Below are positions 1,644 through 28,979 of a stretch of DNA of 29,609 bases, one piece after another. Under the pieces are notes generated by a model. The model ran no database searches. It was given only the letters and a program-made list of their open reading frames with translations, and had not been told where the DNA came from. Both the position numbers and the translations under genes were made by a program. This DNA is from a virus (Duplodnaviria; Caudoviricetes), in the IMG/VR virus record IMGVR_UViG_3300020413_000049, positions 1-29,609 of that record. The stretch is one strand, 5' to 3'. Position 1 is the stretch's first letter, and every line of letters begins with the position of its first letter.

Positions 1644-2755
1644 CGTATGATATCAATGGTATTCAAAGTTTTTTCGTTCCAAACTTCAAGTTCAGTTCTA
1701 AGAGTATTCTCTTTCTTTAATTTATCAAATCTTTTAGTGGCTCTTTTCTTCCACCACTGAATTAAATTTTTTAGATAAAACTTATCAAAATTAATTTCAT
1801 TTTTAATTAACTTATCTGTTTTACCTAGTAGAACTTCTCTGACATTACCATATCCATAATCAGACATATAAAATCTTTTCTTTGTGGTTACATCTTCACG
1901 GCTTTTGATAAATTGTTTGAACTCTTCAAATTTATCTGGATGATTTTGTTTTAATGAGTTCTTAATAATAGAAATCATTTTTGTTTGTACTTTTAGTTTA
2001 CGACTAGAAGCACCTTTATGAATTAACTGTTCTCCATCATTCTTCTCTATAAACCACTTATGTAAATCGTGATATATGTTATCAGGTAGAGTAAGAAGAA
2101 ACTTTGAATCAGTGTCGCCAAGATATTTGACATATGGTTTTAGTCCGTCATATTGACTTGTACCTTTTATATTACCATACAATGATGTAGTCTCAAATAG
2201 ACACATTTCTGTATTGTATTTTTTATTCAACATTTGTCTGACTTCATGAGAAGCACAGACTAGAGATAACAATTTACCACCCAGATAATTATATCCAAAT
2301 GGTTGTACAGGTACAATAATGAAACCCATTATTGCCCTCTTGTTGAATATGGTGAGGTCAGGCACCCCTCCAAGGTACTCGTTTCTAGGTCTTGAGTTAA
2401 TTATGGGCGATCCAAGTTTAATGAATCCTACAACCTTATTTGTGGTTGTTTCTTGAATTATGATTTTTACTTCTTTGCCAGGCGCATCTTCATATGTAAA
2501 AGATGCTGTCATTTCCAAAAGAGTATTAAAAGTAGAATGATCAGGTGTTACAATTTTGAAATCCATATCTTGTGGACTCATATCATAACTTTGAAAGAGA
2601 TCATCTTCCCATTTCATACCAAAAAGAGGAGTCGGAATCTTATTGATTCGCTCCATCTTTTTCATACGAAAATAATCATCAATACGTTCTACACCATCAT
2701 ACGCTTGATGAATTTTACCATAAGCGTATAGTGTATCTTCTGGAGTTAAAATCAT
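1640..2755 (-). CDS. DUF4338 / Druantia DruA-like protein
   Basis: 371 aa with motifs PGK..., VGFIKLGSP, PFGYNYLGGKLL, ETTSLYG and SQYDGL, which I recognise as the DUF4338/DruA pattern. ATGA overlap with gp44. Confidence 0.7.
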   Translation of the reverse strand: MILTPEDTLYAYGKIHQAYDGVERIDDYFRMKKMERINKIPTPLFGMKWEDDLFQSYDMSPQDMDFKIVTPDHSTFNTLLEMTASFTYEDAPGKEVKIIIQETTTNKVVGFIKLGSPIINSRPRNEYLGGVPDLTIFNKRAIMGFIIVPVQPFGYNYLGGKLLSLVCASHEVRQMLNKKYNTEMCLFETTSLYGNIKGTSQYDGLKPYVKYLGDTDSKFLLTLPDNIYHDLHKWFIEKNDGEQLIHKGASSRKLKVQTKMISIIKNSLKQNHPDKFEEFKQFIKSREDVTTKKRFYMSDYGYGNVREVLLGKTDKLIKNEINFDKFYLKNLIQWWKKRATKRFDKLKKENTLRTELEVWNEKTLNTIDIIR

Positions 2756-3699
2756 TTAAATTTGCAATCACACATAATTTCAGTAAAACAAGCAAGTGTA
2801 TTGATCTCTTGATCAACAGCAAATGCAGCCTGATACTGATATTTAGCAAGAATCAATATAGCCTGTGGAATCGACATTGGTTCTAGCGCATTATATAAGG
2901 TATCGTAGACTCTACGAATAACAATATTAACATCATTGTCAAGATTGTCAACTGTCCACTTTCTTACATCAGCAAAGTTTTTTGTTTTCAATGCTGATAT
3001 TAGTCCTGTAAGATTTACTTCTGACATCATTGATAAGATGCCAGTATCTATTTTTCCACATGCAGAATATCTCTGCAATTCGTTTAGCGTTCTCCGAAAG
3101 TCTGGGAAATACTTTTGTATAACTTCTGCGAGTACTTTTTGATCGCACTCGATCCCTTCTCCGCCAAGGATCTTAGAAACCTTTTTGAAGAAAGACGATG
3201 CAAGAGAAGCTCTTTCTCTTCCTTTGAAAGTAAAGTCAAAAACGGCACATCTGGAATGGAGTGGTTCGATGATTTTGTTTTTGAAGTTGCAGGTGAAGAC
3301 GAACCTACAGTTGGCGTGAAACGTTTCAATATTCGCTCGTAAAAGAAGTTGGACATCGTTGGTAGTATTATCTGCCTCATCAATAATGATGACTTTTGGT
3401 TTGCCGTTACCCTGTAACGATACAGTAGAAGCAAAGTTTTTAGCTTGATTTCTTACAGTATCTAGGAATCTTCCTTCGTCAGAACCATTGATAACATAAT
3501 AATCAACACCTAATTCATTACAAAGAGCTTTTGCAATAGTTGTTTTACCAGTACCAGCAGGCCCAGCAAGTAAGAGATTTGGAATCTCTCCTTTGTCAAC
3601 AAATTCTTGAAAAGTCTTTTTTATGTTATCTGGTAAAATACAATCTTCAATTTTTTGTGGTCGATACTTTTCGACCCAAAGAAAGTTTTCACGCTTCAT
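2752..3699 (-). CDS. gp44: Clamp loader large subunit (AAA+)
   Basis: LWVEKYRP, Walker A GPAGTGKTT, Walker B IIIDEAD, SRC motif. Follows gp45. Confidence 0.97.
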   Translation of the reverse strand: MKRENFLWVEKYRPQKIEDCILPDNIKKTFQEFVDKGEIPNLLLAGPAGTGKTTIAKALCNELGVDYYVINGSDEGRFLDTVRNQAKNFASTVSLQGNGKPKVIIIDEADNTTNDVQLLLRANIETFHANCRFVFTCNFKNKIIEPLHSRCAVFDFTFKGRERASLASSFFKKVSKILGGEGIECDQKVLAEVIQKYFPDFRRTLNELQRYSACGKIDTGILSMMSEVNLTGLISALKTKNFADVRKWTVDNLDNDVNIVIRRVYDTLYNALEPMSIPQAILILAKYQYQAAFAVDQEINTLACFTEIMCDCKFK

Positions 3700-4354
3700 A
3701 AGTTGAATCAGGTTCTAGGGCAATCCAATACACTAAATCTAAACTTGTATGTTTAAACACAGATAGATTAGGATGGGATATAGTTACATCGTATACGCCT
3801 GGCAATATTTTTAAGTTTTCAACTTTGAAATTGAAACAGAAATTTGCAGTTGTATTTCCTACAGAAACAGCATAAGTGTTTGAACTATTGTTCTGTTTGT
3901 CTCTTGCAACAAAAAGCATGTCACCATCTTGACTAATCAAAGATAAGTCAGCAAGTTGATATACACTTGAAGCTTTGAGCAATGAGTTGAGATCAACATC
4001 AGATAGTTGAAAAGTTACATCTTCACTAGGAAGATCAATATCTCTTTCTGGAGGAGCAGTAATTACACTAGCATCAGAATAAAAATATTTGGTGCAAGAT
4101 CTACCACTTTTAATTTTAACATAAGATTCATCAAAAAGAAAGTCTGGATCTTTAAATAAAGATACACCAGATAAGAACTCATTTAAATCATAAAGGGCAA
4201 AATCACGTTCAAAAGTTTCTCCTCCATTATACTTAGCATAAATGTTTTTCATAGGAGAGATTGTCCTAAGAACATTTCCAGTCTTCACAACTAAGGAAGG
4301 ACTGATATTAGAGAAATTTTTAAGAACGTTAAAGGTTTCAGAAGATAAATTCAT
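3689..4354 (-). CDS. gp45: Sliding clamp
   Basis: 221 aa. N-terminus LSSETFNVLKNFSNISPS, DFALYDLNEFL, C-terminal YWIALE. Adjacent to gp44. Confidence 0.95.
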   Translation of the reverse strand: MNLSSETFNVLKNFSNISPSLVVKTGNVLRTISPMKNIYAKYNGGETFERDFALYDLNEFLSGVSLFKDPDFLFDESYVKIKSGRSCTKYFYSDASVITAPPERDIDLPSEDVTFQLSDVDLNSLLKASSVYQLADLSLISQDGDMLFVARDKQNNSSNTYAVSVGNTTANFCFNFKVENLKILPGVYDVTISHPNLSVFKHTSLDLVYWIALEPDSTYEA

Positions 4355-4659
4355 TTGTCATAATCAACAGAGAATGATGTCGTACCATCATTGAGAGCCT
4401 GCCCTCGGGCAGTTTTGTCATTGAAGTGAAGAAGTAAAACAGCGTAATGACATACTTTGATAATGTCCTTACGTGCTGAACCTTTCCTATCATAACGTGA
4501 AGCGTATTTCAATATATTCGATCTACAGAACGCTTCGGCATCACCAACAGCATCGATGAGGTCAAGAGTTTGAACCCCACCTTGACTGTAGTGACCACTG
4601 TAAGTCGAATTAATATAATCTGAGACTTCTTTTAGAAGCTCATCCTCATTATATTTCAT
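4351..4659 (-). CDS. DUF3310-family protein
   Basis: HYSQGGVQTLDLI...FCRSNILKYASRYDRKG...DIIKVCHY matches the DUF3310 pattern. Confidence 0.75.
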   Translation of the reverse strand: MKYNEDELLKEVSDYINSTYSGHYSQGGVQTLDLIDAVGDAEAFCRSNILKYASRYDRKGSARKDIIKVCHYAVLLLHFNDKTARGQALNDGTTSFSVDYDK

Positions 4660-4688
4660 AACATATTTTTAAGGATGTATACATTTTA

Positions 4689-5831
4689 CTATGAAAATGT
4701 CTCTATGTCAACAACATCTGTTTTTGCAGTTGTTTTTTCTTCAGCAACTTCTTCAGGCATTACGATCTTATCGTATAAGTCTAAGAATGATTGTTTTGTT
4801 TCTTCATCAAAACGATTTAAGCAAACTTGAATTGCTTTAGTTTCATTTTTAAAGATAGAAAAAGCACGAACAATATGTGTTAGACGGCGAGTAGAAATAA
4901 CTTCATCTACACCACCTTCAGCAAATGTCTTACGAATAATATCTGCCCACTTAGTAAGATTTTCAATGAAAGTTTTATTTGTCTTACCATTCAACTGAAT
5001 ATCAAGAGCAGTTAGAATCTTTTGTTCTACTGATTCAGAGGGATATTCTTGTTCAAATGTGAGGGCGAATCTTTCAAGGAAGGCTTCATTGAGCACGTTA
5101 GTTCCAATAAATCGTCCATCGTCTGAACCTTTACCCTTAGTATTTGCGGTTGCGATGATATTGAATCCTCGCTGGGGTCTAACGAAACTTCCAATTTTTT
5201 TAAGGTAAACACCAGATCCCTCAAGGATTGACTGAAGGCAGAGGATCTTGTTAGAGGCAAGGTCGATTTCGTCAAGGAGCAAGATTGCACCTCGGTTGAG
5301 GGCTTCGATGACTGGGCCATTGTGCCATACGGTTTCACCATTAACAAGGCGGAAACCACCAATAAGATCATCTTCATCTGTTTCAATAGTAATGTTTACA
5401 CGAATAAGTTGTCTTCCGAGTTGAGCACACGCTTGTTCAACACCGAATGTTTTTCCATTACCAGATAATCCAGTAATGAATGTTGGATAAAATACACCAG
5501 ATTTAATAACTTTTTTTATGTCATTGAAGTTACCAAAAGGCACATAGTTTGGATCTTTAGCAGGAACTAGATCCTTAGCATTTAAATATGCAGTATCAAA
5601 AGAATCTACTAACATTGGTTTTGCAGTTTTGGTTTTAAAATTCTTTTCTAGTTTTTCTGCAATTGATAGATTCCATACACCTCTAGAAGCTTTGTATGGT
5701 TTTAATCTTTTAAGAACAGTAGAAAGAGAAACTCCTAATTTTTTGGCAGTGTCAGTGATTTGTTGACGAGTCACAGTTGTGCCGTGTTGAGTCTTCAGAT
5801 TTTCAAGAATTGTTTCAGTTGTGATGATCAT
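4689..5831 (-). CDS. cobS: CobS-like MoxR-type AAA+ ATPase with N-terminal HTH-like region
   Basis: Walker A GLSGNGKT, DLIGG, Walker B LLLDEID, TANTKGKG, NEAFLERF, ISTRRL. Confidence 0.9.
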   Translation of the reverse strand: MIITTETILENLKTQHGTTVTRQQITDTAKKLGVSLSTVLKRLKPYKASRGVWNLSIAEKLEKNFKTKTAKPMLVDSFDTAYLNAKDLVPAKDPNYVPFGNFNDIKKVIKSGVFYPTFITGLSGNGKTFGVEQACAQLGRQLIRVNITIETDEDDLIGGFRLVNGETVWHNGPVIEALNRGAILLLDEIDLASNKILCLQSILEGSGVYLKKIGSFVRPQRGFNIIATANTKGKGSDDGRFIGTNVLNEAFLERFALTFEQEYPSESVEQKILTALDIQLNGKTNKTFIENLTKWADIIRKTFAEGGVDEVISTRRLTHIVRAFSIFKNETKAIQVCLNRFDEETKQSFLDLYDKIVMPEEVAEEKTTAKTDVVDIETFS

Positions 5832-5854
5832 GAGGGTTGTCTTTGTATGTTACT

Positions 5855-5883
5855 ATTATAGTTCAAACGCTTAGCGTTGTCAA
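5855..5883 (-). promoter_or_regulatory. Sigma70-type promoter for cobS
   Basis: Perfect TTGACA (5883-5878), 17 bp spacer, TATAAT (5860-5855). The spacer contains the inverted repeat AACGCT-N-AGCGTT. Confidence 0.85.
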
Positions 5884-8087
5884 GCGATTTGATCAACAAA
5901 TTTAGATAAGAGTATCTTATGGAAACTCTTACTTTTGATATGTTTTTTAAATTCGTTTCTCAATTTACTTTTAGTTGAATTACTATTAGCATTCATCTCT
6001 TCAACTTCGCCAAATCCTTTACCCATTTTAATTATATACAACTCATTGTATCCTAGATTCTTTTCTATAACATATCCATTTCTTTTCCATACTTTTGTAA
6101 ATTGATCTCTATCAAGTGATCCTGATCTTGTAATTGAAGCAGGTTTTTCATTACATAATCTGTATCCTACAACGTTACTTCCAGTAATCCAACGATAGTA
6201 TTGAATTAGTTTACTGGTAACATCAAATGATCTTGCTGACCAAGAATCATAGCCTGGTTCTACCAATTTATGTTGTTGATAACCACTCTTAGGATCATTG
6301 AAATTTACTGAACTACCACTATTTCCAACGTGAGATCTTGAAGTCCACTCATTACCATCTTCATCTTTTCTACTTTTGTTTGCAGTTAAATGATTTGATT
6401 CTCCATCAGTTAGGAATACTGTATTGACTTTCTCAACTTTAGTATTTTTAACAAACTTTTTATACAAGTAAGACGCTGCAAAGATAGTTTCATTTAATGG
6501 TGTTCCACCCATTTCATATACACCCATACCATCAACACTATGTACAAAATTATCCTGAGTCATTTTAGTCAACATCCATACAGCATCCATCTGAACATCT
6601 AGTTTAGTTTTACTTTGTGAATTAAAGAATTGAACTAAATGAAAACAATCATTGACGGCAACTGTATTATTTTTTTCAGAACATTTACTGTATTGTTTTC
6701 CACCATAATAATGATCAGAAGCACGATTCTCTACAAAAGAATAAACCTCAAAAGGAATATTTACTTTCTTACAGAATTGAACAATATTGAATAGTTGTTT
6801 GATAGTTGGAAGTAACTCATTATGCATTGAGCCAGACCAATCAACAAACATCATCAATCCATGATTTTTACCATCAGGAACTACTGAAACTTTTTTGAAA
6901 AGATCTTCATTAAATTTATAAGTATGAAGTTTTGCTGTATCAAGAACACCAGTTTTAGAAGTTGTTGAACGAGCATATGCTGATGCAGATTTTTTCATCT
7001 CAAATTCTTTAACAAGAAAATTAACTTCTTTCTTAGAAGATAACTTGTACTCACTTAATTCTTGATTATACTTATCAAGTAATTTTTGATCTTTAGCAGG
7101 ACTATTCAAACTATATGTAAAAACTACTTTATCTCTTAGTTTTGATTTAGCATAATTCATATCATCTATAACTTTATCATTGTAAGTGATGTAGTCTTCC
7201 CAATTACATTCTGGAGGAGTAACAGTTGACCATGTATCCTTAGAAAGTAATTTCTTTTGATTACGATTAAATGATGATTGAGTGCTGACTTCCATATCAT
7301 CTTCATCTTCTTCTTCATCATTAAGAAGATTTTCAATTTCATCTAGATAGTCTTCTAATGAATCCCAAGGTTGCTTTGGATCTATAGTCAGTTGATCAGG
7401 TGTTTCTTCAATCAATTCTTCTTTATCTTCTTCGTTTGATGATTCTTTACTTGGAGATCCTTTTATAGTTTCATCAGCATTTTGTGGTCTACCTGTACTA
7501 CTCATTTGAATCTCAGGTAATTCTACATCTGATTCTTTTTTAGTTTTATGTAATTGCATAAACTCATGTATGTCTCTTGCAACTTTACAAACTTCATCAA
7601 ATGTAGTTGCACTCCTAGTTAGTTCTATAAATTTCTTTTCTTCTTCTTTAAAAGGAATTATACATGATACATCAGCAATACCAATTTTGAAATATAAATT
7701 AATTCTATCTATTAAATTAAATTCTTTTAAATTTTTACCCTCAATTTCAAAGAAATCTTTTTTGATAAGTTCTTTATAACCACTACAAAATGACTTGATA
7801 AGGCCTGGATATGTAGATTTGATCATTCTCTCAATACGAGCATCTTCTACAACATTTACATATGAACTAGGAATATCAGCATCTATTTTTTCGTTTGGTG
7901 TGTAAAGAGCATGACCAACTTCGTGACCTACAAGCATATCATATACATCTTCAGATGCTTCCCATACAGGTAGAGTCAAAACTCTATTAACAACATCAAA
8001 TGATGCTGTTTCTACATTAGCATGTTCTACTACTAGGTTCTCTGTAGCAAGTAGTTTTGCGAGATTGGTTTTAACCCCTTGATTCAT
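5880..8087 (-). CDS. HExxH metallopeptidase-like domain plus VWA (CobT-like) protein
   Basis: LVGHEVGHALYT and NVVEDARIE, then an acidic linker, then VWA MIDAS motifs FVDWSGSM, GGTPLNE and FLTDGES. Start moved to ATG 8087 (MNQGVK) because an AGAGGA RBS and a promoter lie just upstream. Confidence 0.85.
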   Translation of the reverse strand: MNQGVKTNLAKLLATENLVVEHANVETASFDVVNRVLTLPVWEASEDVYDMLVGHEVGHALYTPNEKIDADIPSSYVNVVEDARIERMIKSTYPGLIKSFCSGYKELIKKDFFEIEGKNLKEFNLIDRINLYFKIGIADVSCIIPFKEEEKKFIELTRSATTFDEVCKVARDIHEFMQLHKTKKESDVELPEIQMSSTGRPQNADETIKGSPSKESSNEEDKEELIEETPDQLTIDPKQPWDSLEDYLDEIENLLNDEEEDEDDMEVSTQSSFNRNQKKLLSKDTWSTVTPPECNWEDYITYNDKVIDDMNYAKSKLRDKVVFTYSLNSPAKDQKLLDKYNQELSEYKLSSKKEVNFLVKEFEMKKSASAYARSTTSKTGVLDTAKLHTYKFNEDLFKKVSVVPDGKNHGLMMFVDWSGSMHNELLPTIKQLFNIVQFCKKVNIPFEVYSFVENRASDHYYGGKQYSKCSEKNNTVAVNDCFHLVQFFNSQSKTKLDVQMDAVWMLTKMTQDNFVHSVDGMGVYEMGGTPLNETIFAASYLYKKFVKNTKVEKVNTVFLTDGESNHLTANKSRKDEDGNEWTSRSHVGNSGSSVNFNDPKSGYQQHKLVEPGYDSWSARSFDVTSKLIQYYRWITGSNVVGYRLCNEKPASITRSGSLDRDQFTKVWKRNGYVIEKNLGYNELYIIKMGKGFGEVEEMNANSNSTKSKLRNEFKKHIKSKSFHKILLSKFVDQIA

Positions 8088-8109
8088 AAGTCCTCTTGTG
8101 TATATGGCT

Positions 8110-8138
8110 ATTATAACGCCATCAAAGCGCTTAGTCAA
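8110..8138 (-). promoter_or_regulatory. Sigma70-type promoter for the peptidase/VWA gene
   Basis: TTGACT (8138-8133), 17 bp spacer, TATAAT (8115-8110). Confidence 0.8.
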
Positions 8139-8160
8139 TGGGTTGATTGATTAGTATATC

Positions 8161-9873
8161 TTATATGTTCTGCACTTTACTAAAGTTTTTCACCTTATCA
8201 AACTTCAATACCCTATCAAATTTATCATGTAGCACTTCACTCTTATGTGATATAACAAAAATATTTGTGTCTGGTTGTCCACCTCGAATGATTCTTAAAA
8301 ACTCATCAGTACCAGATACATCAAGTGATGAATCGAATACCTCATCCAAGATTAATAAATTTGTATTTGCTGAGTTTTTCATTTTAGCTATTGATCTCCA
8401 TGTAAACATCAAAGCTAAATCAATTCTCATTTTTTCACCTTCACTAAAAGATGAATAAGTAAAATCATCTCTGTATCTAGATTTAATACTTTCATTAAAC
8501 TCTTCATCTAATGTAAAGTTGACATAAAAATCTAAATCTTTCAGATATTTATTAATCAACTGATTCATAACAGGCAAATACTTTTTAATAATATGACCTT
8601 TAATACCTGTATCTTTTAACAAACTTGTAACTAAAGCATAGTTTTCATTTGTTTTTTTAAGGTTCTTATTTCTCTTGTGAAGTGTAATACCTCTAGTAGC
8701 TATCTCTGTGAGTTTCTTTTTTTCACAATCAATATCATTTGTATTTCTCTGTAAGTCATCAATCTCTCCTTGAATCTCTCTGATAATATTACTATTCTTT
8801 CTCATCTCATTCAACTTTGATTTTACTTCAAAATTATAAGAGGATACTTCAGCATTATTGTCTGCAATTCTTTGTAGATCTTTATTTAATACAGTGATCT
8901 CATCATCTAATTCTTGTAAGTAATCTTCAGATGTATTAATTGTTTGTTGGTTTTCTTCTATATGAAACTTCTTTAATTGTTTTGTAATTGATTGAGTACA
9001 CTTTGGGCACTCATCATGTGTCTCAAAAAATATTTTTTCTTTTTCCGTTCTCTTTATTAAATTTGTATTTGTGGTAATTTTTTTCTCAACTGCTTTAATA
9101 TCCTTAATTATCTTTAAGTTATCTAAGTCTGTAAAGGTTTCAATTTTTTCTTGTAATTCACTGATAACCTTTTCTAAAACTATATTCTTTCCTTCAAATT
9201 TAGTAATTGTTTTTTGTTTTTGTTCTACAGTTTTCATAGCAGTCTTCTCTAATCTTTTCAGATGGTCTTGCTGCATTTCTGCTTTTTCTTTTAAGAAGTC
9301 AACTTCTTTACTATTGTCTTTATATTCTTCTGCAGCAACCTTGACTCGATCTTTTAATAACACATTCATTGTAGAGAAAATACGAATGTCTAAAAGATCT
9401 TCTATGATCTCTCTGCGGTTTGGAGCAGACAGTTGCATAAAAGGCACAAAAGAAGCACTACCCAAGATTACAATTTGAGTAAATGATTTATAATTTAATT
9501 TTAAAATATTTTGTTCTAAATGCTTTTGTTGATCATTGACATGAGAGTCTTGATTTTGCATTTTGCCATTAGACCAAATCTCAAATAGACTTGGTTTCAT
9601 TCCACGAATAACTTTATATTTGTTTCTACCTATACTAAATTCTACTTCTACAACACAGTCTTTTTCATTGATACTATTGACTAGTTGTGATTTATTAATT
9701 TTTCTAAAAGACTTATTAAATAAAGCAAATACTATAGCTTCTATAATTGTACTCTTTCCAGCACCATTTTGACCTACAATCAATGTAGTGTCATTGTCTG
9801 AAAGATTTATTCTGATTGGAGTATTACCTGATGCTAGGAAATTCTTATAACTTATTTGCTCAAATAAAATCAT
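8161..9873 (-). CDS. gp46: Recombination endonuclease ATPase subunit (Rad50/SbcC-like)
   Basis: GQNGAGKST, coiled coils with zinc hook CPKC, FSEGEKMRIDL, LLILDEVFD, ISHK. Confidence 0.97.
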   Translation of the reverse strand: MILFEQISYKNFLASGNTPIRINLSDNDTTLIVGQNGAGKSTIIEAIVFALFNKSFRKINKSQLVNSINEKDCVVEVEFSIGRNKYKVIRGMKPSLFEIWSNGKMQNQDSHVNDQQKHLEQNILKLNYKSFTQIVILGSASFVPFMQLSAPNRREIIEDLLDIRIFSTMNVLLKDRVKVAAEEYKDNSKEVDFLKEKAEMQQDHLKRLEKTAMKTVEQKQKTITKFEGKNIVLEKVISELQEKIETFTDLDNLKIIKDIKAVEKKITTNTNLIKRTEKEKIFFETHDECPKCTQSITKQLKKFHIEENQQTINTSEDYLQELDDEITVLNKDLQRIADNNAEVSSYNFEVKSKLNEMRKNSNIIREIQGEIDDLQRNTNDIDCEKKKLTEIATRGITLHKRNKNLKKTNENYALVTSLLKDTGIKGHIIKKYLPVMNQLINKYLKDLDFYVNFTLDEEFNESIKSRYRDDFTYSSFSEGEKMRIDLALMFTWRSIAKMKNSANTNLLILDEVFDSSLDVSGTDEFLRIIRGGQPDTNIFVISHKSEVLHDKFDRVLKFDKVKNFSKVQNI

Positions 9874-12577: not shown

Positions 12578-14042
12578 CTTTCCGAAAATTGACTGGAATA
12601 ATTTCATAATTAAATTTTTCTTGAGAATATATCTTTATTCTTTCTATCAAATGGTTTAACGTATAATTTTTTTTATCTCCGTCACTAAAATCATCTGCGA
12701 TATCATAAAGTGTAGCATTTGTTTTTTGATCTCCTTTTCTTAAAACCCTACCTATAGACTGTAAATTTCTAATTCTAGATTTTGAAGGAGAAGCAAAAAT
12801 TATATTATGAAGATTTTTAATGTTAATTCCAGTTGAGAAGGTGCCGTAAGAGGCAACAATAATGGCATCATTTTCTTTCTCCGTTATGTATCGAACGTAT
12901 TCTCGTTCTTCTGCTGCTACACCACCAAAAATAAAGAAAACCTTACGATCAGTAGATGTACTACTATTTATCAAATTGTAAAGAGGCTCTCCATGTTTCT
13001 CTACTCTTGCAAATAATATCAAAGTGTTTCCAGTTTGATTCAAAGCAAGTTTTTTAATAAAGTTATTTCTCTTCTCAAACTCACAAATATATTCTATTTC
13101 ATCATTATATGTTTCAAAATTTTGTTTATAATGTTGTAGTAAAAGAATATTAATTTTAAGTGTTGATAAGTAACCTCTATCAATTAAACTCTTTGTCTTT
13201 ACTACCTTATCAACTGTACCAAACAATCCTTCGAGAACTAGTTTGTTTACGTTTTCACCATCTAAAGTACCTGTAAAACCAATTCGATGTTTACAATTAT
13301 GTAACTTTGTCATAATACTTGTTAGAGACTTTGCTTTAAATAAATGTGCTTCATCTCCTATAACACAATCAAATCTCTCAAACCATTTCTTTGGTAGTTT
13401 GTATATTGATTGCCAAGTTGTGACTACAACTGGTTTTGATGATATTTTTTCTTCACCAGAATATATTTTATGACAATAATCTTTAGCACTCCATCCGTAT
13501 TCTTTAAAGTCTCCAACTAACTGTTCTACTAGAGATGTGGTAGGCACTACAATTAAAACTTGTGATCCACTATCAACAAACCATCTCACAATTGCATATA
13601 TCATTAAAGACTTACCAGATGCAGTCGGTGACAGTAATAACTTACGATTCCATCTTAGCGCTTTATAAATTGCTGCAAGTTGATAATCTCTTACCTGCAA
13701 AGGTATGTTTAAACTTTTAACAAAATCATGAACCGCTAAAGGTGTAATTGTTTTATTCTTTTCATTTGGTAAACCGTAGTCTTCGTCTTCTACATCAACG
13801 TATTCATATCCTCTATTCTCTAACCAGTCAGTTAAGTAACTATATAATCCACAATAAATTCTGCCATGAGCTGGACTGAAGAGTTTAATTTTTCCATCCC
13901 ATATTTTCTTTTTGTATTGAGGCATGAACTTAGCGCCAGGCACATCAAAACTAAAATACTCAGATAACTCATATTTTATATGAGTCTCACAATCCACCGA
14001 AAGATATACTTCGTTCTTTTTTTGGATTTTGACCTGTGACAT
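12570..14042 (-). CDS. uvsW: SF2 RNA-DNA/DNA helicase
   Basis: RDYQ, SPTASGKS, GDEAH, FTGT, STGINI, QSIGRVLR. Confidence 0.97.
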   Translation of the reverse strand: MSQVKIQKKNEVYLSVDCETHIKYELSEYFSFDVPGAKFMPQYKKKIWDGKIKLFSPAHGRIYCGLYSYLTDWLENRGYEYVDVEDEDYGLPNEKNKTITPLAVHDFVKSLNIPLQVRDYQLAAIYKALRWNRKLLLSPTASGKSLMIYAIVRWFVDSGSQVLIVVPTTSLVEQLVGDFKEYGWSAKDYCHKIYSGEEKISSKPVVVTTWQSIYKLPKKWFERFDCVIGDEAHLFKAKSLTSIMTKLHNCKHRIGFTGTLDGENVNKLVLEGLFGTVDKVVKTKSLIDRGYLSTLKINILLLQHYKQNFETYNDEIEYICEFEKRNNFIKKLALNQTGNTLILFARVEKHGEPLYNLINSSTSTDRKVFFIFGGVAAEEREYVRYITEKENDAIIVASYGTFSTGINIKNLHNIIFASPSKSRIRNLQSIGRVLRKGDQKTNATLYDIADDFSDGDKKNYTLNHLIERIKIYSQEKFNYEIIPVNFRKDE

Positions 14043-14473
14043 CAGATACTACCTTGCATGAATTTTTGCCATTCAATGCTATTCTTAATCTGGAAGGTTC
14101 TATTGTTGATTTGTTGGATAATTTTTTCCAGTAAGAAAATCATCTCTTCATAGTAATTTATACGAGTTACTACGTTTTGTATTTCCTTATCAGATTCTAT
14201 GTACATCGGAACATCTTGTTTCAATACCTTTAAATCAAAAGGTTGTTCCTGATATACAGACTCATCTGCTTTACCAGTATAGTATTCAAACTTTTCTCTA
14301 ATTAAAAGTTTGTATTCTTGTTCTTTTCTAATCTTTAAACACCTAACATCACTTAGATAATTTAAATACTTAGAATGAAGTTGAGGGATTTTTGTTGATT
14401 CATTATCTAAAAGATCATTATCAATGCGGCTATCATCAGCCCATTGGGCCTTGATATCATCAAGTTGTATCAT
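14042..14473 (-). CDS. uvsY: Recombination mediator protein
   Basis: LDNESTKIPQLHSKYL, YYTGKA, RTFQIKNSIEWQKF. Directly upstream of uvsW. Confidence 0.93.
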   Translation of the reverse strand: MIQLDDIKAQWADDSRIDNDLLDNESTKIPQLHSKYLNYLSDVRCLKIRKEQEYKLLIREKFEYYTGKADESVYQEQPFDLKVLKQDVPMYIESDKEIQNVVTRINYYEEMIFLLEKIIQQINNRTFQIKNSIEWQKFMQGSI

Positions 14474-14479
14474 AAAAAA

Positions 14480-16138
14480 TTAAGTCAGAATTTGATCAAA
14501 TGGTGTAATCCAGTCTTCGCTTGGGTTTGTTACAGTAATAACATCCATACTTCTTGCTTGCAATTTAGCAATCAATTGATCATATGATGCTTGAACAGTT
14601 TGCATAGTCATACTACCAGAGGTATCAACAAATATCGCTACTTTAGATCCATCAGGTAAACTATCTAGGCCACATATGGTATACCAATCTGAAGCATTTG
14701 AAACTAAACCACCATCACGATTAACGTGTATAGGGCCAAAAGTTTTTCCTATATGATTCTTACCAATATATGAAGTATCATTTATTGTAATTTCTGGTGT
14801 GTATGCAATAATAACTCCATCAGCATTAAGAACTTGTACAATTATTTTTTCTGCTCCTTCTGTTTTACCATCTCTTAACACAGGTATTGTAATAACACCT
14901 ACGTTACTGTTTATTGTAAATGTCTTTGTTTGGTTACTAAAATCTCCACCATCTCCGAATGTTATAGTACTACCACTAGAAGCAACAACATTTGAAGTTA
15001 ATACTGTACCATCTGCAACACCACTAGTAGCAACGTTAATAACAATATTAGTTGTACCACCATTAGGAGATTCGTTAATAGATGTAGCCGCTGGTGTTAA
15101 TCCTATAGTAAAAGCAGTGTCTTCGATAATAGTATTCATTGTAGCTACTATTGGGCCACTCGTTGATACTATACGAATATTTACTGTTAGAGTTTCATCA
15201 GATTCAACTGTTAAATCTTGTTTAGCAGTAAGAGTAAATGTTCCTGTATTACTTGTAATTGAGAAAGAGCCTGTAAGTGGGGTAACATCAGTGCTTGACA
15301 GATTAACTGTATAATATAAAGATGTACCATCTGGTACTCCAGTAGTATTGACAGTATAAGTTACAGTGTTACCTTCAACAACAGTATTTGATCCAGAAAT
15401 ACTATAAGTTGCAGCAGAAGTATCTGCTACATTAACTGTGTTAGATGTTACTACTAAAACACCCGCCTCACTTATTTGTAATGCAAAATTTTCAGCACCT
15501 TCAGATACACTATAATCATTTATTATAGTTCTAGTAATAGTTGCAGTATTATTATTAACTGTAGTAAGCCCTGATAGAGTATTATCAGAAAAATCTTCTG
15601 CTTCTACAGTACCAGTTGTATTCCAATACAGACTTGTGCCATTTGGAACATTGGTTGTTGTAATTGTAAATGTAACTGTATCTCCCTCGTTAACATTTGT
15701 AGAAGATTCACTAACTGAATATGTTGGGGCAACCTGTGTTTGTACTAGAGTACCACCAATACCTTTTACAACTATTTTTTTATCACCAATAGTTACTTCA
15801 TCACCTAAAGACTTACCACTAATCAAACCATTTTGATCAAAATTAAGTGTTACTGTTGCTGCATTATTTTTTACAACTACTTGATCATAAGCAACAGCTG
15901 GAAAATATGTATACTCACCCTCGATTAAATTACCAGTTAAATCTATAGTCTCACCATGATTCCATAAGACTATATTAACAGGTCTACCTAAATTACTAGT
16001 TACACCAGAACTAGAAGATGTAAGCATAGTATTAACAGTACCCATATAGTCTTGAACTATATCATTAGGGCCAAACATACCTTTATACTCTTTCAACCAA
16101 TGTTTGAAATTCTTTTTATTGTTGGAAGTTAATGTCAT
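14480..16138 (-). CDS. Putative virion protein with three Calx-beta/Ig-like repeats and a C-terminal VWA-like segment
   Basis: Thr/Ser/Val-rich. Repeats TYSVSESSTNVNEGDTVTFTITTTNVPNGTSLYW, TYSISGSNTVVEGNTVTYTVNTTGVPDGTSLYY and FTIGLTPAATSINES...TSGVADGTVL. C-terminal AIFVDTSGSM. Confidence 0.7.
   Translation of the reverse strand: MTLTSNNKKNFKHWLKEYKGMFGPNDIVQDYMGTVNTMLTSSSSGVTSNLGRPVNIVLWNHGETIDLTGNLIEGEYTYFPAVAYDQVVVKNNAATVTLNFDQNGLISGKSLGDEVTIGDKKIVVKGIGGTLVQTQVAPTYSVSESSTNVNEGDTVTFTITTTNVPNGTSLYWNTTGTVEAEDFSDNTLSGLTTVNNNTATITRTIINDYSVSEGAENFALQISEAGVLVVTSNTVNVADTSAATYSISGSNTVVEGNTVTYTVNTTGVPDGTSLYYTVNLSSTDVTPLTGSFSITSNTGTFTLTAKQDLTVESDETLTVNIRIVSTSGPIVATMNTIIEDTAFTIGLTPAATSINESPNGGTTNIVINVATSGVADGTVLTSNVVASSGSTITFGDGGDFSNQTKTFTINSNVGVITIPVLRDGKTEGAEKIIVQVLNADGVIIAYTPEITINDTSYIGKNHIGKTFGPIHVNRDGGLVSNASDWYTICGLDSLPDGSKVAIFVDTSGSMTMQTVQASYDQLIAKLQARSMDVITVTNPSEDWITPFDQILT
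14770..15724 (-). repeat. Three diverged ~100-115 aa tandem domain repeats
   Basis: Repeats start near 15724, 15409 and 15117. Each ends in an E-x-x-E...I/V-x-D-T motif (EGAENF...VADTS, ESDETL...IEDTA, EGAEKI...INDTS). Confidence 0.75.
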
Positions 16139-17799: not shown

Positions 17800-18841
17800 G
17801 ATCAATTGTAGAAGAATCTGTTTCTTCTAAAAATGTAGGTGGACAATGTAGAGTAGATATTGTATCGGAATAAGTACCTTGATTTGGTTGTAATAACCAG
17901 AATGTTCTATTTGGCCAATTACCTCTGAATGTAGCCCACTTAGCTTCCATACCAGCATGTGATTGACTACCCATATTTTCATCAATAATAGCTATACATG
18001 TTCGATCCGCACTTGTCGGCATTATGTTTTCTGGAACACTAATTGTAGTTGAGGCAGTGGATGTAGTACCATCAAAACCTGTTGCGGTAATTGTGTATGT
18101 AATACTACCGCCTGGTGCTGCAGCTTTTACTGTAGCATACGGAATAGTTTTTGTTCCATTGTCTAGAGGTACAGTTCCTACTCCATTATCAATCACCAAG
18201 AATCTTGCATTGGATGATGTGTATGTTAAAATTAAATCTGTACCAGATGAAAGTGAACCACTTACATTGTTTGCAATTGTTACAGTTTCATTTTCCGCTG
18301 CAACAAGTGAAGATTTACTTAGATCTATTATATCATAAATGGTATATTTAAAAACTGCGTCTGCGGAAAAATATTCTGTATCTGTATATCCACTATCAAA
18401 ACTTAATCCACCGATACTAACTGGAAATAAGTCTTTGAATTTAACTTCAAATTTGTGTTTAAAATTAGAATCTAAGATAAACAAACTTCCGTCAGAGTAA
18501 GACATCTCATCATAATCTTCTCCTGTTAGATATGTTTCTCTATCCTGACCTGAGCCTGGATGACCTAGACCACGAATCCAATTATGTAACGATGTATAAT
18601 TATTTAATTTTTCATCTACTAAAAATCTTATTTGTAAATCATCAAAATTTATTTCATCGCCTGGTTGCGGAATTGTATTAAATCTAGTAGCCTGCATTGC
18701 AGTTGCTAAATTCATGCCTGGAACATTTACTGACTGACAGAAAAAAGCAACATTAGGAAGTTTTTGTAATTGAAATTGGAATCCAATCCCCGACAGAAAA
18801 TTCTGTGGACTATTAGGATTAGATACAAAATTAGCTGACAT
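17795..18841 (-). CDS. gp3: Tail completion / sheath stabiliser gp3 with a ~175 aa C-terminal extension
   Basis: First ~172 aa match gp3 (NFLSGIGFQF, FFCQSVNVPG, FLVDEKLNNY..LHNWIRGLG, FKDLFPVSIGGLSFD, FKYTIYDI) at its usual position after gp23, followed by extra domains. Confidence 0.85.
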   Translation of the reverse strand: MSANFVSNPNSPQNFLSGIGFQFQLQKLPNVAFFCQSVNVPGMNLATAMQATRFNTIPQPGDEINFDDLQIRFLVDEKLNNYTSLHNWIRGLGHPGSGQDRETYLTGEDYDEMSYSDGSLFILDSNFKHKFEVKFKDLFPVSIGGLSFDSGYTDTEYFSADAVFKYTIYDIIDLSKSSLVAAENETVTIANNVSGSLSSGTDLILTYTSSNARFLVIDNGVGTVPLDNGTKTIPYATVKAAAPGGSITYTITATGFDGTTSTASTTISVPENIMPTSADRTCIAIIDENMGSQSHAGMEAKWATFRGNWPNRTFWLLQPNQGTYSDTISTLHCPPTFLEETDSSTIDL

Positions 18842-18910: not shown

Positions 18911-20272
18911 TTACATTAGGTTAAGAACTCTTGTACGTCTGTAGTATACGTTATCATTTGCAGTTAAAGCACCACTTCTTTGAGTAGTTCCACCAGCAAA
19001 TGGGTTTGATACCATTCCGTAACGAGTCTTGAATCCGATTTTTGGTTGGAATGTGTCCTGACCAATCGCTCTCACCATTTGGAGAGGAACGTAAGGGCAA
19101 TAGAAAAGTCCAGCATCATATGCACTAGAACCTTTGTAACCCATAACGTAGTAATGATCATCTGAAATGTTAGCAGAATATGGATCAACATAAACCTTGA
19201 TGCGTCCGTTAAGAACACCAGCAAAAGTTGACTCAGTATCGTCTGGAGTACCACTTGTAGAAAGAGCTGGAGTGTAATCTAATACACCTGCCATGTTAAG
19301 AGCACTAGCAACGTCAGCAGAACAGACGATGAAGTTACCCTTTCCTCTACGAGTCTCATGACCGATTGCGTTTGCATCTCGTTCAATCTGGTAGATAAGT
19401 CCTTTGAACTTCTCAACTGACCAACGACCATTACTGTCAACGTCTAAGTCGAATGAACCACTGTTTGCAACGTTGGACTGAGCACCAGGCTTAGCAACAA
19501 CGTAGATAGTTCTCACAACTTCACGGTTGATTTCAGCAAGAACCTCTGTTGAGAGGATGTTCGCAAGTTCAGTCTCAGCGTCAAGACCATGAATTGCTTT
19601 CAAGTCTTGAGCAAGTTCTAAACTGTACTCAGCTTTTAGCGCACGTGCTTTCGCTTCAACAGTTACTTTCTCGATAGAGAATGACATCTCTCTGAAAGCA
19701 CCTGTGTTATCTCCAAGACCCTCAAGGGTTGCAGTGTTCATACCACCTGTAGCAGCATAGTTGCCAGGAGATGCAGCGTTAAGAACTGATGGGTTTGTTG
19801 CAGCTTCACCAGTTGCAGCAGAGTATGCACCACCACCAGCAGAGAAACCAGATGGAACTTCATCATAGAAAGTTTCATTGGTAAACACGTTAGGTGTTGC
19901 ACCGTTACCATCTCTGTCTGTACCACGATGAGCACGCATTGCGAATATAAGTCCAGTAGGACCACTCATTGGTTGTACACCAGCGATATCATATGCCATT
20001 AACTTAGGCATTGATCTTCTTATCAATGAGATAAGAACAGGGTCAAAACCAGCAACAGGACCTGCACCAGCAGCAGAACCACTGAATCCACCTGTACCAG
20101 CACTCATTGTAGGATCTTCATAAAGAACTGAACGCTCTTCACGAAGGAATTTTTCTTGGTTTTCTAATAGAATAGCTGTAACAGCTTTTCTATGATTATC
20201 TTTTACGTCCTCAAGACCAGTGTGCTCCAGTATGGGCTTCCACTTTTCTTGAAGTTTTTCCGAATTGTACAT
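18911..20272 (-). CDS. gp23: Major capsid protein
   Basis: AILLENQE, FDPVLISLIRRSMP, GVQPMSGPTGLIFAMR, LKAEYSLELAQDLKAIHGLDAE, FYCPYVPLQM, FQPKIGFKTRYG. Confidence 0.99.
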   Translation of the reverse strand: MYNSEKLQEKWKPILEHTGLEDVKDNHRKAVTAILLENQEKFLREERSVLYEDPTMSAGTGGFSGSAAGAGPVAGFDPVLISLIRRSMPKLMAYDIAGVQPMSGPTGLIFAMRAHRGTDRDGNGATPNVFTNETFYDEVPSGFSAGGGAYSAATGEAATNPSVLNAASPGNYAATGGMNTATLEGLGDNTGAFREMSFSIEKVTVEAKARALKAEYSLELAQDLKAIHGLDAETELANILSTEVLAEINREVVRTIYVVAKPGAQSNVANSGSFDLDVDSNGRWSVEKFKGLIYQIERDANAIGHETRRGKGNFIVCSADVASALNMAGVLDYTPALSTSGTPDDTESTFAGVLNGRIKVYVDPYSANISDDHYYVMGYKGSSAYDAGLFYCPYVPLQMVRAIGQDTFQPKIGFKTRYGMVSNPFAGGTTQRSGALTANDNVYYRRTRVLNLM

Positions 20273-20333: not shown

Positions 20334-21329
20334 TTACTTCCAACGATCAATCGCAGCTGCGTATGCAGACATCGGACCGTTTAAAGGTTGGTCTTCCTTT
20401 TGTTCTTCCGCCAGATCTTCACTTTGCGTGACAGGCTTCTTAGGGAAATAACTCTCCTTAAGAGTACCTACTTTTTCACGATAAGATTCTTCACTTTCAA
20501 ACTCTACACTCTCAACTAAGGAGTTAAACTTCTCTTTTTGTGTTTGAGCAAGACCTTCGGACACTTCACTTACAATTCCATTTTTAATATACTGTCCAAG
20601 TGCTTTATTTAGCTCAACATTTTTTTCGATCTGTTCATTGAGTTTACCTTCCATTTCATCAATCTGTTCTGTCATTCCTTCTAGAACATCATATTTGTCG
20701 TCTGGGATATCAATGTAATTTTCACTAAAGAGGTTCCTCAAACCAGTGATGAACTCTTCTGTGATTTCATTGCGAAGGCCTGAATCAATGGCGAGATGGT
20801 TCTCTTTAACCCATTGTTCGGCAACATAATCTAAATGAGCATCTACTCTTGCTTCCATTGATTCCTTTACGGACTCAACTTCTTTTGCAAGTTTTTCTTC
20901 GTAGTCACTCTCAAACTTTTCGACTTGCTCAACGACTTTTGCTTTTACAGCGGCTTCAAAAATCGTAGCAGCCTTTTTTTGGAACTCTTCACTGAGTTCT
21001 TCACCTTGTAGAAGTGCGTTAACATCTTGAGATACGTCAACTGTAATCTCTTCTGTCTCCTCTACTTCTTCGGCAACCTTACCAGATGCTTTAGAAGGTT
21101 TTGCCTTAATAGACTTATCTCCTTCAAATTTAGCAGCAGCGGCAGCTTTTTTACCGATTGACTTAGGATCGTCAGGTACAACTACTGGGCCGCCGAGATC
21201 ATCAGCGCTACCAGATTGGCCTGGAGTAGGATCGGTCAATGTTTTTGGAGCCTTATCACCCGCTTCTGCGTTTTTGGTGATAGGATTTGACTCCTCTATT
21301 TTTTCTTTTTCTTTAACGTCAACAGCCAT
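20334..21329 (-). CDS. gp22: Prohead core scaffold protein
   Basis: Acidic coiled coil with LSEEFQKKAATIFEAAV, YVAEQWVKEN, LKESYF and MSAYAAAI. Lies between gp21 and gp23. Confidence 0.93.
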   Translation of the reverse strand: MAVDVKEKEKIEESNPITKNAEAGDKAPKTLTDPTPGQSGSADDLGGPVVVPDDPKSIGKKAAAAAKFEGDKSIKAKPSKASGKVAEEVEETEEITVDVSQDVNALLQGEELSEEFQKKAATIFEAAVKAKVVEQVEKFESDYEEKLAKEVESVKESMEARVDAHLDYVAEQWVKENHLAIDSGLRNEITEEFITGLRNLFSENYIDIPDDKYDVLEGMTEQIDEMEGKLNEQIEKNVELNKALGQYIKNGIVSEVSEGLAQTQKEKFNSLVESVEFESEESYREKVGTLKESYFPKKPVTQSEDLAEEQKEDQPLNGPMSAYAAAIDRWK

Positions 21330-22329: not shown

Positions 22330-22355
22330 AATAAAAAATCATGTATTACAACTAT

Positions 22356-22363
22356 TATTTATC
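22356..22363 (-). promoter_or_regulatory. Late promoter (GATAAATA)
   Basis: NATAAATA overlapping the gp20 stop codon. Confidence 0.7.
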
Positions 22364-23996: not shown

Positions 23997-24027
23997 ATTA
24001 TAAAGGGATTATCTTTCTATTCAATCC

Positions 24028-24035
24028 TATTTATC
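24028..24035 (-). promoter_or_regulatory. Late promoter (GATAAATA) for gp20
   Basis: NATAAATA overlapping the gp19 stop codon. Confidence 0.7.
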
Positions 24036-24666: not shown

Positions 24667-24700
24667 GGTTTTTTATACCTCTGTGTGTTTTTTATAAAGA

Positions 24701-26983: not shown

Positions 26984-27018
26984 GTTTTATTACCTCTATG
27001 AGATTTATTTCTCATTAT

Positions 27019-27026
27019 TATTTATT
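27019..27026 (-). promoter_or_regulatory. Late promoter (AATAAATA) for gp18
   Basis: NATAAATA upstream of the gp18 RBS (GAGG). Confidence 0.7.
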
Positions 27027-27066
27027 GATTACTAACTTTCAAACGGGGAAACAGCACGTGAACATA

Positions 27067-27309
27067 CTACCAGTCTGGATAGTCTGCTAAGTATGGAGGT
27101 AAAGGTCTAGGTCTATTTTTCTTTCTACTTGATACTACTCTTTCTACAGTACATAACTTACATTCATAAGAATATGCTGATGCAAATGGTTTTCTATTCT
27201 TACGAGTTAAATAAAAGTCTTCAATTAAATTTTTTTTCTCTCCACAAACTCTACATTTTCTTTCTTTAAAAAGTAAATGTTCTAGTTCAAATTCTGTATC
27301 AAGATCCAT
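27067..27309 (-). CDS. Small CxxC...CxxC Zn-binding hypothetical protein
   Basis: RKCRVCGEKK...FY...YSYECKLC, ending in YPDW. Lies between gp17 and gp18. Confidence 0.8.
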   Translation of the reverse strand: MDLDTEFELEHLLFKERKCRVCGEKKNLIEDFYLTRKNRKPFASAYSYECKLCTVERVVSSRKKNRPRPLPPYLADYPDW

Positions 27310-28979
27310 TACTTATAATTCCACATAAATGAGTTATCGTAATCGATTCCTCCACCCTTCTGTCCATATTCATCAACCTTCCAAACATCACCTGTCTCCT
27401 TCTCTACAAATGTATCTTCTTCCAATCCATCTGAAATAAATCCAAAAGGAGCCATATCTTCTTCTATTGATTCTCTTTGATCTTCAAAAATTCTTTTTCT
27501 GACATCATCAGAAGTCATCTCTTTAAAATAATCTGAAACACATAACCATGCAAATATTACGAGACACATAGCAAGGTCATCATTACAACCTTCTTCTGCT
27601 TCAAATGATTGTTTCTTTTGAATGAATGTTGTAAGTTCTGCAATGATATCATAATCGGGTATTAATAACTTATCATCCTCTATCAATGCTTTAAGGTTAG
27701 AACATCCTGTTTTCTTAACAGTAGATGTCATTTTTACACCTAACTGTGACTTGTGAGAGAATCCCTGTCCTACTAATTGACCAGCTCTACCTCTCATAGC
27801 ACACATTAATAGATTTTCATATTCCATATCAAACTGTAGTATATCTGCTACCTGTCCACCAATATCATTAACCTCAACCATAATATATGCCATATTATAA
27901 TTCTTTGCAACATCGTGAACTATATTTGGAAATACTATTGGTTTAATATTATTATTTCTATACTTACCTACTAACTTATATGGAATAGTTGTTATATCAA
28001 TTAAAGTAAATGCTGAATAGTCATTCGACACACCTCTGGCAACATCAACTGTAAGTATATAATTATGATCTTGTACAACATGTTCATAGATATCTAAACC
28101 TTTATTTCTTATCAGAGGATCATCATATGCCATCACTTTTAATTTTGATGGTGCTATAAGAGTATCAACAGATCCTAAGAACTCACATTCAAATTCTTGT
28201 ACAAACTGTCTTTCAGATGTGTTTGCAATCGTTTGTTCTTTCCATTTAGCATCTCTGCCAGGAACTTGACTCCAATGAACTTCTGTTGTTTTATATTCAT
28301 TTCTACCACGTTCAGCATCATGCCATAACTTGTAGAACATATTCATTCCATTCGGAGTTGATATAATTATAACCTTAGTTTTTTGACCAGATGATATAGT
28401 AGGATAAACTGAACTAAAGAATTGTTCTGCTATATGATTTGGTACGAAAGCAAATTCGTCTAAGAATATAATATTAAATGACATACCTCGAACAGCAGAA
28501 CTAGAGGTAGAAGCAGCTAATATCTTACTTCCATTTTCTAATTCTACATTACCTTTATTCCATGCTAAAATACCATGTTGCATCCATCTAGGTAAATTTT
28601 CATATGCAAGTTGCAATCTAGATAATAGTTCTCTAGATGTAGAAGCTTTGTTTGCTAGTATACCAATATTAACATTATCATTAAAAATAATGTAATGTAA
28701 AAGATATGAAATAACAGTTGTAGATTTACCAGTCTGACGAGGTAGCTTAGCAATATTAAATCTATTTTTATGAAACTTCTCGACCATCTTTTCTTGAAAG
28801 TCGTACATACTAAAAGGTACTAGACCCTCATCAAGAGAGACTATTTTTATATATTTTCTAGCAAAATATATTGGATCATCCTTACATTTAACAAATTCAA
28901 TAACCTGTTTTTCAGTGAACTCTATAGGTGTATTGGCTTTTTTAAGATTGGGATTACCTAGATAAACACTACTCGTCAT
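27309..28979 (-). CDS. gp17: Terminase large subunit
   Basis: YLGNPNLKKA, Walker A PRQTGKST, IFLDEFAF, ISTPNG, VDVARG, NDDLAM. Start taken at ATG 28979 (MTSSVYLG). Confidence 0.98.
   Translation of the reverse strand: MTSSVYLGNPNLKKANTPIEFTEKQVIEFVKCKDDPIYFARKYIKIVSLDEGLVPFSMYDFQEKMVEKFHKNRFNIAKLPRQTGKSTTVISYLLHYIIFNDNVNIGILANKASTSRELLSRLQLAYENLPRWMQHGILAWNKGNVELENGSKILAASTSSSAVRGMSFNIIFLDEFAFVPNHIAEQFFSSVYPTISSGQKTKVIIISTPNGMNMFYKLWHDAERGRNEYKTTEVHWSQVPGRDAKWKEQTIANTSERQFVQEFECEFLGSVDTLIAPSKLKVMAYDDPLIRNKGLDIYEHVVQDHNYILTVDVARGVSNDYSAFTLIDITTIPYKLVGKYRNNNIKPIVFPNIVHDVAKNYNMAYIMVEVNDIGGQVADILQFDMEYENLLMCAMRGRAGQLVGQGFSHKSQLGVKMTSTVKKTGCSNLKALIEDDKLLIPDYDIIAELTTFIQKKQSFEAEEGCNDDLAMCLVIFAWLCVSDYFKEMTSDDVRKRIFEDQRESIEEDMAPFGFISDGLEEDTFVEKETGDVWKVDEYGQKGGGIDYDNSFMWNYK

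Follow-up and report, generated by a model that had tools for sequence, protein, structure and literature searches.

Why would a phage keep the pentamer CCWGG only where a G stands next to it? The question is raised by a 29,609-nucleotide stretch of viral DNA (IMG/VR record IMGVR_UViG_3300020413_000049, positions 1 to 29,609; called the window below), a fragment of a T4-like marine phage that runs from gp17 to gp44 with every gene on the minus strand, and that carries, beside gp44, a cassette of a DruA-like gene and a glycosyltransferase (GT) gene. In this window every CCWGG site has a flanking G, the same rule recurs in other phages, and the cassette, or a methyltransferase cassette that alternates with it, may be what makes the flanked sites tolerable.

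A flanking G at every CCWGG site

A first-pass annotation, made from the letters of the window, had listed 20 CCWGG sites, each flanked by G, and our recount returned exactly this number, all of them flanked. Counts are written total/unflanked throughout, an unflanked CCWGG being HCCWGGD, that is, a site without a G 5' of it on either strand.

2477..28262, both strands: 20 CCWGG sites, each preceded by G on one strand or both and each an in-frame Pro-Gly (minus-strand reading CCW-GGN)
19485..19490, minus strand: Lys-Pro-Gly of gp23, the sole Pro-Gly with GGT, its G coming from the preceding AAG codon

The G lies 5' of the site on the plus strand in 19 cases and on the minus strand at 19485, as had been noticed for this GGT exception, and 4 of the 20 carry a G at each end. 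Among the coordinates given earlier, 19 mark the flanking G, with the site starting one base further on, and only 19485 is the site itself. A count over the 29 genes bore out the claim that all 20 Pro-Gly dipeptides are encoded CCW-GGN, 19 of them with GGC: Pro-Gly is in frame at every site, there is no further Pro-Gly, and, as claimed, CCWGG occurs nowhere outside this context, neither out of frame nor unflanked. Glycine is indeed seldom GGC elsewhere (19 of 20 codons after Pro compared to 35 of 594 after other residues; Fisher p = 6e-21). Against amino-acid-preserving codon shuffles, the count of HCCWGGD is far from its expected frequency, with 0 observed and 18.3 ± 2.6 expected, and 0 of 2000 shuffles reached 0. 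We regard the flank rule of the window as confirmed, and as a real and strong feature.

The same kind of shuffle shows that several palindromes are absent from the window altogether: CCGG (0 versus 13.4 expected), CGCG (0 versus 9.3) and GAATTC (0 versus 11.9), with TTCGAA and TACGTA also missing, and CCSGG missing because CCGG is. Two further motifs, which the first-pass annotation did not contain, are depleted with G-flanked survivors (4 of 4), namely CTGCAG (2 versus 8.8) and CCTGAA/TTCAGG (2 versus 19.2).

9330..9335: CTGCAG survivor, G flank on the minus strand
18118..18123: CTGCAG survivor, G flank on both strands
4752..4757, minus strand: CCTGAA survivor, reads GCCTGAA on that strand
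20779..20784, plus strand: CCTGAA survivor, reads GCCTGAA

The CCWGG rule is in other words one case of a wider shield by a G before CC or CT. Judged by sequence, the protected context would be GC[C/T]: a 5' G rescues CCWGG, CTGCAG and CCTGAA and does not rescue CGCG, a motif with C in GCG that is avoided altogether; nor is CTGCAG protected by the GCA that it contains. CTGCAG is weak when taken alone, as in control genomes many of its sites are G-flanked through Ala-Ala coding. For CTAG and CATG, no flank rescue was seen.

The window also shows depletion of RGCY (127 versus 199), CGACG (0 versus 9.5), GGGAC (1 versus 9.1) and GGWCC (7 versus 15; GGSCC 8 versus 3), all of which are likely further restriction footprints. 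We discarded two of these as diagnostics, RGCY because rule-negative genomes are depleted too, and GGWCC because a change to GGSCC evades a GGWCC cutter without any mark.

A candidate enzyme beside the clamp loader gene

The cassette lies at the gp44 end of the window, and the clamp loader gene places it inside the replication operon.

279..1643, minus strand: GT4-like glycosyltransferase, 454 amino acids; Atlas look-alikes are GT4 (score 0.95-0.96), no Pfam match
1640..2755, minus strand: DruA-like/DUF4338 protein, 371 amino acids, bordered by gp44 and the GT gene; putative enzyme for DNA modification at GC[C/T]
2752..3699, minus strand: gp44 clamp loader (Pfam Gp44_lid, AAA)

The DruA-like protein (phrog_19197) matches Pfam PF14236 with E = 1.2e-11 and 44.8 bits against a curated cut-off of 27, over profile positions 63-183 of 297 only, and the domain is present in 77 of 77 homologs. 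DUF4338 has been called a GNAT (PMC10853773); a further lead to the GNAT fold is an Atlas match to PF22559 at 0.85, under the Atlas bar of 0.9, and sequence searches of the PDB gave no match.

From these patterns we infer a nuclease, a modification, an enzyme and a modified base. A GC[C/T] mark very probably underlies the rule, and it seems to us reasonably probable that the DruA-like protein installs it. A host nuclease would cut CCWGG or CCNGG, the protein would mark GC[C/T] after replication, probably on C (a mark on the opposite-strand G being the alternative), and the marked DNA would block the nuclease. Considering that Pro-Gly is always CCN-GGN, and that CCS-GG is closed by the avoidance of CCGG, the site cannot be removed by silent change; selection would instead pick GGC, or a preceding codon ending in G, and so bring the outer C into a GCC on either strand. 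Modification of a single strand would have to block cutting, and it indeed appears to be enough, because a G at both ends is seen in only 4 of the 20 sites. The nuclease set of the host would decide which motifs come under the rule. The idea that a mark in a GpC context shields forced CCWGG sites from a nuclease was already part of the first-pass annotation; the comparative data below support it well, with enzyme and nuclease as postulates. As to chemistry, N4-acylation of cytosine is a guess by analogy.

Close relatives of the window obey the rule (G001 36/0, L096 22/0, G006 37/1), and so does the complete genome of Synechococcus phage S-SSM7, which has a DruA-like gene (CCWGG 206/10, CTGCAG 27/0). 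In S-SSM7 we found no match to PF00145, PF01555 or a custom hidden Markov model (HMM) for methyltransferase (MT) and TET, that is, no C5-MT, N4/N6-MT or TET, and no GT match. Its genes contain 9 unflanked CCWGG compared to 184 expected. The G may stand on either side (among the in-frame sites, 48 have it solely 5' and 104 solely 3'), and all 17 out-of-frame sites are flanked as well, which excludes a pure in-frame codon-pair effect, the outcome that the first-pass annotation had named as fatal to its proposal. All 10 unflanked sites of S-SSM7 overlap GGWCC, and none of the 187 non-overlapping sites is unflanked; GGWCC methyltransferases methylate that outer C, and a second mark placed on this base would produce just such exceptions. 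The whole genome holds 150 GGWCC and 0 GGSCC.

For a wider contrast, we used a panel of 39 genomes or fragments (21-233 kb read each), comprising 22 carriers of a DruA-like gene, 14 non-carriers and three that were left out: Mosig, with a distant homolog (CCGG 52/26), and Melnitz and G068, with MT/TET. In 11 of the 22 carriers CCGG occurs only with a G flank (100 of 100 sites; S-CAM9 37, G052 17, G005 12, S-PRM1 11, DSL-LC02 8, and at most 4 in each of the other six genomes), and 4 carriers have no CCGG at all. Among the non-carriers, 12 lack CCGG, 2 are unconstrained and none is GCCGG-only. Thus, GCCGG-only genomes number 11 of 15 carriers and 0 of 12 non-carriers (Fisher p = 1.8e-4), a grouping made post hoc over related genomes, most of them read in part. 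Presence of the DruA-like gene tracks the shield where no GpC C5-MT was found. In this comparison of carriers and non-carriers, of the kind that the first-pass annotation had proposed, the GCCGG-only pattern is confined to carriers; the CCWGG rule holds in just 4 of 22 carriers (the window, G001, G052 and S-SSM7).

This narrow spread, together with the small site numbers and the limits of the contrast just given, weighs against the DruA-like protein as the source of the mark, and several further observations do so too. Six of the 22 carriers (G059, Sf-CH8, L015, S-SM2, S-SRM01 and S-B68) follow no rule for any tested motif and have plentiful unflanked CCGG, HTVC008M is partial (CCGG 51/10), and AG-345-O18 has neither CCGG nor the CCWGG rule, while the window, G001 and S-SSM7 retain no GCCGG whatever. 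For the GGWCC exceptions of S-SSM7, no enzyme and no open reading frame (ORF) of a DPPY/NPPY-type methyltransferase was found. The non-carrier S-B05, one of the 12 without CCGG, encodes a CmoX with SPPC and R350, of a family shown to modify GC, and is free of the rule over the 41 kb read (CCWGG 59/48, CCGG 0), so a GC mark need not leave this footprint. The sole characterized GNAT DNA modifier that we found in the literature, Mom, acts on adenine. Finally, the assembly of the source virus comprises the window alone, approximately 30 kb out of a genome estimated at some 180 kb (size via the completeness of relatives), and the roughly 85% that is unseen leaves room for a separate methyltransferase.

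The DruA-like gene is not sufficient for the CCWGG rule. The sisters L008-L013 carry the same DruA-like and GT pair, yet 47 of their 65 CCWGG sites are unflanked. We had considered the cassette refuted by these sisters and dropped this view, as the sister G005 is GCCGG-only (12 of 12 CCGG flanked) and S-SSM7 is rule-positive. L006 has 4 of 8 CCWGG sites unflanked and a duplicated gp62/RegA. This contig of 11862 bases carries two gp62/regA pairs, the first with a window-type DruA and GT block in a different gp45/gp44 background, and looks mosaic, either as a chimeric assembly or through a transferred cassette.

Of the module at 279-2755, to which the first-pass annotation had tentatively tied the rule, the evidence indicates the DruA-like gene rather than the glycosyltransferase. 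In twenty loci that extend 3 kb or more downstream and lack a GT match, 5 of 128 CCWGG sites are unflanked, and since these loci and S-SSM7 obey the rule, the GT is dispensable for it; a role in further decorating the mark is possible.

An alternating methyltransferase cassette and the rival explanations

A distant clade obeys the rule too, with 74 of 80 loci free of any unflanked CCWGG; its nearest cultured phage is the Methylophilales phage Melnitz (CCWGG 68/0, CCGG 15/0, CTGCAG 14/0, CCTGAA 9/0; CGCG 1). In an unbiased screen of Melnitz, CCTCC, CCTGA, CCCGT and CCGAG were likewise rescued by a 5' G, and in G053 CTNAG is always G-flanked (6 of 6 sites; 57 expected). The genes that directly follow gp43 in Melnitz are those for a C5-MT (with SPPC, and with Leu where R350 of CmoX aligns), a Tet_JBP protein and a P-loop kinase. 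GpC[C/T] specificity is reported as measured for phage C5-MT/TET pairs (Burke 2021, PMC8256090), and the Melnitz MT would share it: a GC[C/T] mark is predicted to rescue sites that start with CC or CT and not CGCG, as seen in this phage. The Melnitz paper goes no further than suggesting a protective role for the methylase (PMC9004378). Across 80 loci with a Melnitz-type MT, which are close kin (76-100% identity), 3 of 147 CCWGG and 5 of 54 CCGG sites are unflanked. Nine such loci (L400, L408-L415) have the C5-MT and P-loop kinase with no TET match in the stretch covered. They nevertheless obey for CCWGG, which may mean that methylation is enough by itself.

In the rule-positive G052, the Melnitz MT/TET position is taken by a DruA-like gene (63% identity to that of the window) and a GT gene (53%), followed by a similar-looking gene of approximately 99 amino acids and MazG; no PF00145 match was found in its 59 kb. 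A tree of 26 proteins groups the window's DruA-like protein with that of G052 at 100/100, G052 being flagged as a long branch. The 80 DruA loci of the G052 type have 20 of 352 CCWGG, 2 of 59 CCGG and 7 of 39 CTGCAG sites unflanked, and of the 51 loci in which gp43 is present, 47 have DruA next to it. Within the stretches covered (±10 kb only for rule-positive contigs of 59 kb and 91 kb), the cassettes are mutually exclusive, with MT/TET in 0 of 80 DruA loci and DruA/GT in 0 of 80 MT loci. Two cassettes thus alternate at one locus after the DNA polymerase gene, both obeying the rule. The first-pass annotation had held that phages obeying without the cassette would sever its link to the rule; Melnitz is formally such a phage, with an alternative GpC enzyme in the locus, so that the cassette is neither necessary for the rule nor, given L008-L013, sufficient.

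Of the 20 unflanked CCWGG sites of the DruA loci, eight (in L714, L715, L729, L748 and L763) have the form GC-CCWGG on one of the two strands, several of them being the same homologous site; protection may therefore also come from a mark that lies a base beyond the site.

The alternation bears on the rival explanation that survives best, which we nevertheless consider unlikely: the same shield could come from a Melnitz-type GpC[C/T] C5-MT, with or without TET, or from another enzyme in the unseen part of the genome, the DruA-like gene being a passenger or acting on another target. Melnitz itself, the measured specificities (PMC8256090), the 30 kb seen out of 180 kb and the six DruA carriers without the rule speak for it. 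Against it, DruA stands in for MT/TET at one locus, the complete S-SSM7 and S-CAM9 are shielded with no C5-MT found, and searches in the window's clade gave nothing: PF00145 was absent from the window, G001-G004, G074 and the L536 record, most of the window's own genome being unseen, and matched none of 5, 46 and 5 fragment records; the MT/TET HMM had no match in the window, G002 and L536, which together span gp62 to the start of primase; a pattern walk over five loci to the primase start revealed no MT; a walk from gp41 met no close clade contig (best 74%); and a TET query against the genome contigs found nothing.

Quite improbable, in our view, is a scenario in which the phage adapts its codons to a host methyltransferase that recognizes a site containing GC and marks the progeny. 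Marine myovirus genomes do contain N4-methylcytosine (m4C) at RGCY, CCWGG, CCNGG and GGWCC, mostly unmatched to known methyltransferases (PMC8919816). However, we rejected RGCY methylation as the window's mark, as a pyrimidine precedes the G in 17 of 24 flanks, so that most sites read YGCCWGG and lie outside RGCY. In addition, CCGG differs by DruA status among phages from the same isolation host, which may not be the natural one: S-PRM1 11/0 versus S-P4 0 on WH7803, S-CREM1 4/0 versus S-SZBM1 0 on CB0101, and Sf-FS3 2/0 versus Sf-FR1 0 on WH8102.

The least probable account, largely refuted, dispenses with modification, invoking a nuclease that reads HCCWGGD (the alternative in the first-pass annotation) or a translational preference for GGC after Pro: taken by itself, the window speaks for it, with Pro-Gly in frame at each of its 20 sites and 19 of these solved on the 3' side, but this account would demand separate G-excluding enzymes for CCWGG, CCGG, CTGCAG, CTNAG, CCTGA, CCTCC and CCCGT, it meets the two-sided and out-of-frame flanks of S-SSM7, and in the sister G005 GGC follows Pro in only 2 of 39 cases.

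Known systems and further observations

The nearest known systems are the GpC[C/T] clusters of C5-MT and TET, with or without GT and P-loop kinase, which share the putative context, the location in the replication module and, in Melnitz, the rule (Burke 2021, PMC8256090); unlike them, the window and the clade fragments seen have no C5-MT or TET. CmoX, a cytosine C5-carboxymethyltransferase of Synechococcus phage S-B43, is reported to modify C in a GC motif (PMC12783734); it has a C5-MT fold, whereas the DruA-like protein is DUF4338, no C5-MT with SPPC/R350 occurs in the window, and the CmoX carrier S-B05 is rule-free.

Mom of phage Mu, a GNAT that performs a Gly-tRNA-dependent N6-adenine modification at SASNY (PMC13219725), is a precedent for the acylation of a DNA base by a GNAT (PMC13219725, PMC7824862). 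By analogy, the DruA-like protein is a GNAT-assigned phage protein that would mark double-stranded DNA after replication at a short motif against restriction, and its S-SCSM2R homolog is annotated "methylcarbamoylase mom". Unlike Mom, however, its shielded context can lack adenine (GCCGG), and CCAGGT, a match to SASNY, is depleted in the window (1 versus 10.2); moreover, the Pfam matches at E <= 1 of the 77 homologs include no Mom family, and no PDB match to the solved Mom structure was obtained. With DruA of Druantia, the protein shares the family domain (PF14236, over the curated cut-off). The Druantia operon includes other Dru genes, e.g. the DruE helicase, while the present gene is phage-encoded, among clamp-loader genes, with gp44 and GT as neighbors and then gp62/RegA in relatives; no other Druantia gene was seen among the cassette neighbors, where no PADLOC library search was made. 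Phage genomes in general avoid restriction sites, as does the window for CCGG, CGCG, GAATTC, TTCGAA and TACGTA; unlike in general avoidance, the unremovable site is kept with a fixed flank, enriching a rare codon.

GpC-directed phage marks are already known, and the codon rule, on which we found nothing in a literature with few subscription journals covered, would point to a new form of phage DNA shielding. Pyle et al. thought it unlikely that a mark confined to GpC could protect a whole genome (bioRxiv 10.1101/2023.12.21.572611). The codon pattern suggests an answer to this printed doubt, namely that phages recode unavoidable sites to overlap the mark. The m4C found at CCWGG, CCNGG and GGWCC in marine myovirus methylomes (PMC8919816, PMC9516812) points to dedicated methyltransferases as the means by which other phages shield these forced sites. 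A shield of this kind would imply a CCWGG- or CCNGG-cutting defense in marine hosts, for which few restriction-modification systems are reported (same sources).

We tentatively propose, short of believing it established, that phage DUF4338/DruA-like GNATs form a widespread class of cytosine-acylating GC[C/T] DNA enzymes, interchangeable with C5-MT/TET, under whose mark marine T4-like phages would recode unavoidable sites. These proteins number over 6,000 clusters; at abstract level, and with few subscription journals covered, the literature gives no DNA target for them, and GC[C/T] would be a testable one. S-SSM7, S-CAM9, S-PRM1 and Melnitz are cultured and open to direct measurement. If the proposal is true, flank rescue of depleted motifs would read both the enzyme specificity of the phage and the nuclease set of its host from sequence alone, making the screen a cheap predictor of modification specificity.

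The window phage is cyanophage-like; its gp23 has approximately 71% identity to gp23 of S-CREM1, S-H38 and P-TIM40. A cyanobacterial host is likely because transaldolase-like and ferredoxin-like genes, recognized by eye, occur on contigs of its clade. Just after regA, L003 has an ORF of 764 amino acids (6732-9026, minus strand) that resembles glycogen phosphorylase, and L002 (5288-6243) and L006 (5269-7941) have an ORF of 890 amino acids that resembles the glycine dehydrogenase GcvP. In L096, gp23 is split over two ORFs (13752-15129), probably by an assembly frameshift.

Other flank rules exist as well. In another cyanophage-like group (L480, L503 and L517; CCWGG 28/0), sites are mostly RGCCWGG (22 of 31 flanks), perhaps owing to a mark of the RGCY type. 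On one strand or both, a purine stands 5' of CCWGG in 166 of 171 sites of P-TIM40 (L596-599, L628-632) and in 63 of 63 sites of MED4-213 (L604-607), possibly through an RCC-type mark; both phages lack DruA and have PF01555 N4/N6 methyltransferases, and G014 has PF01555 without the purine rule.

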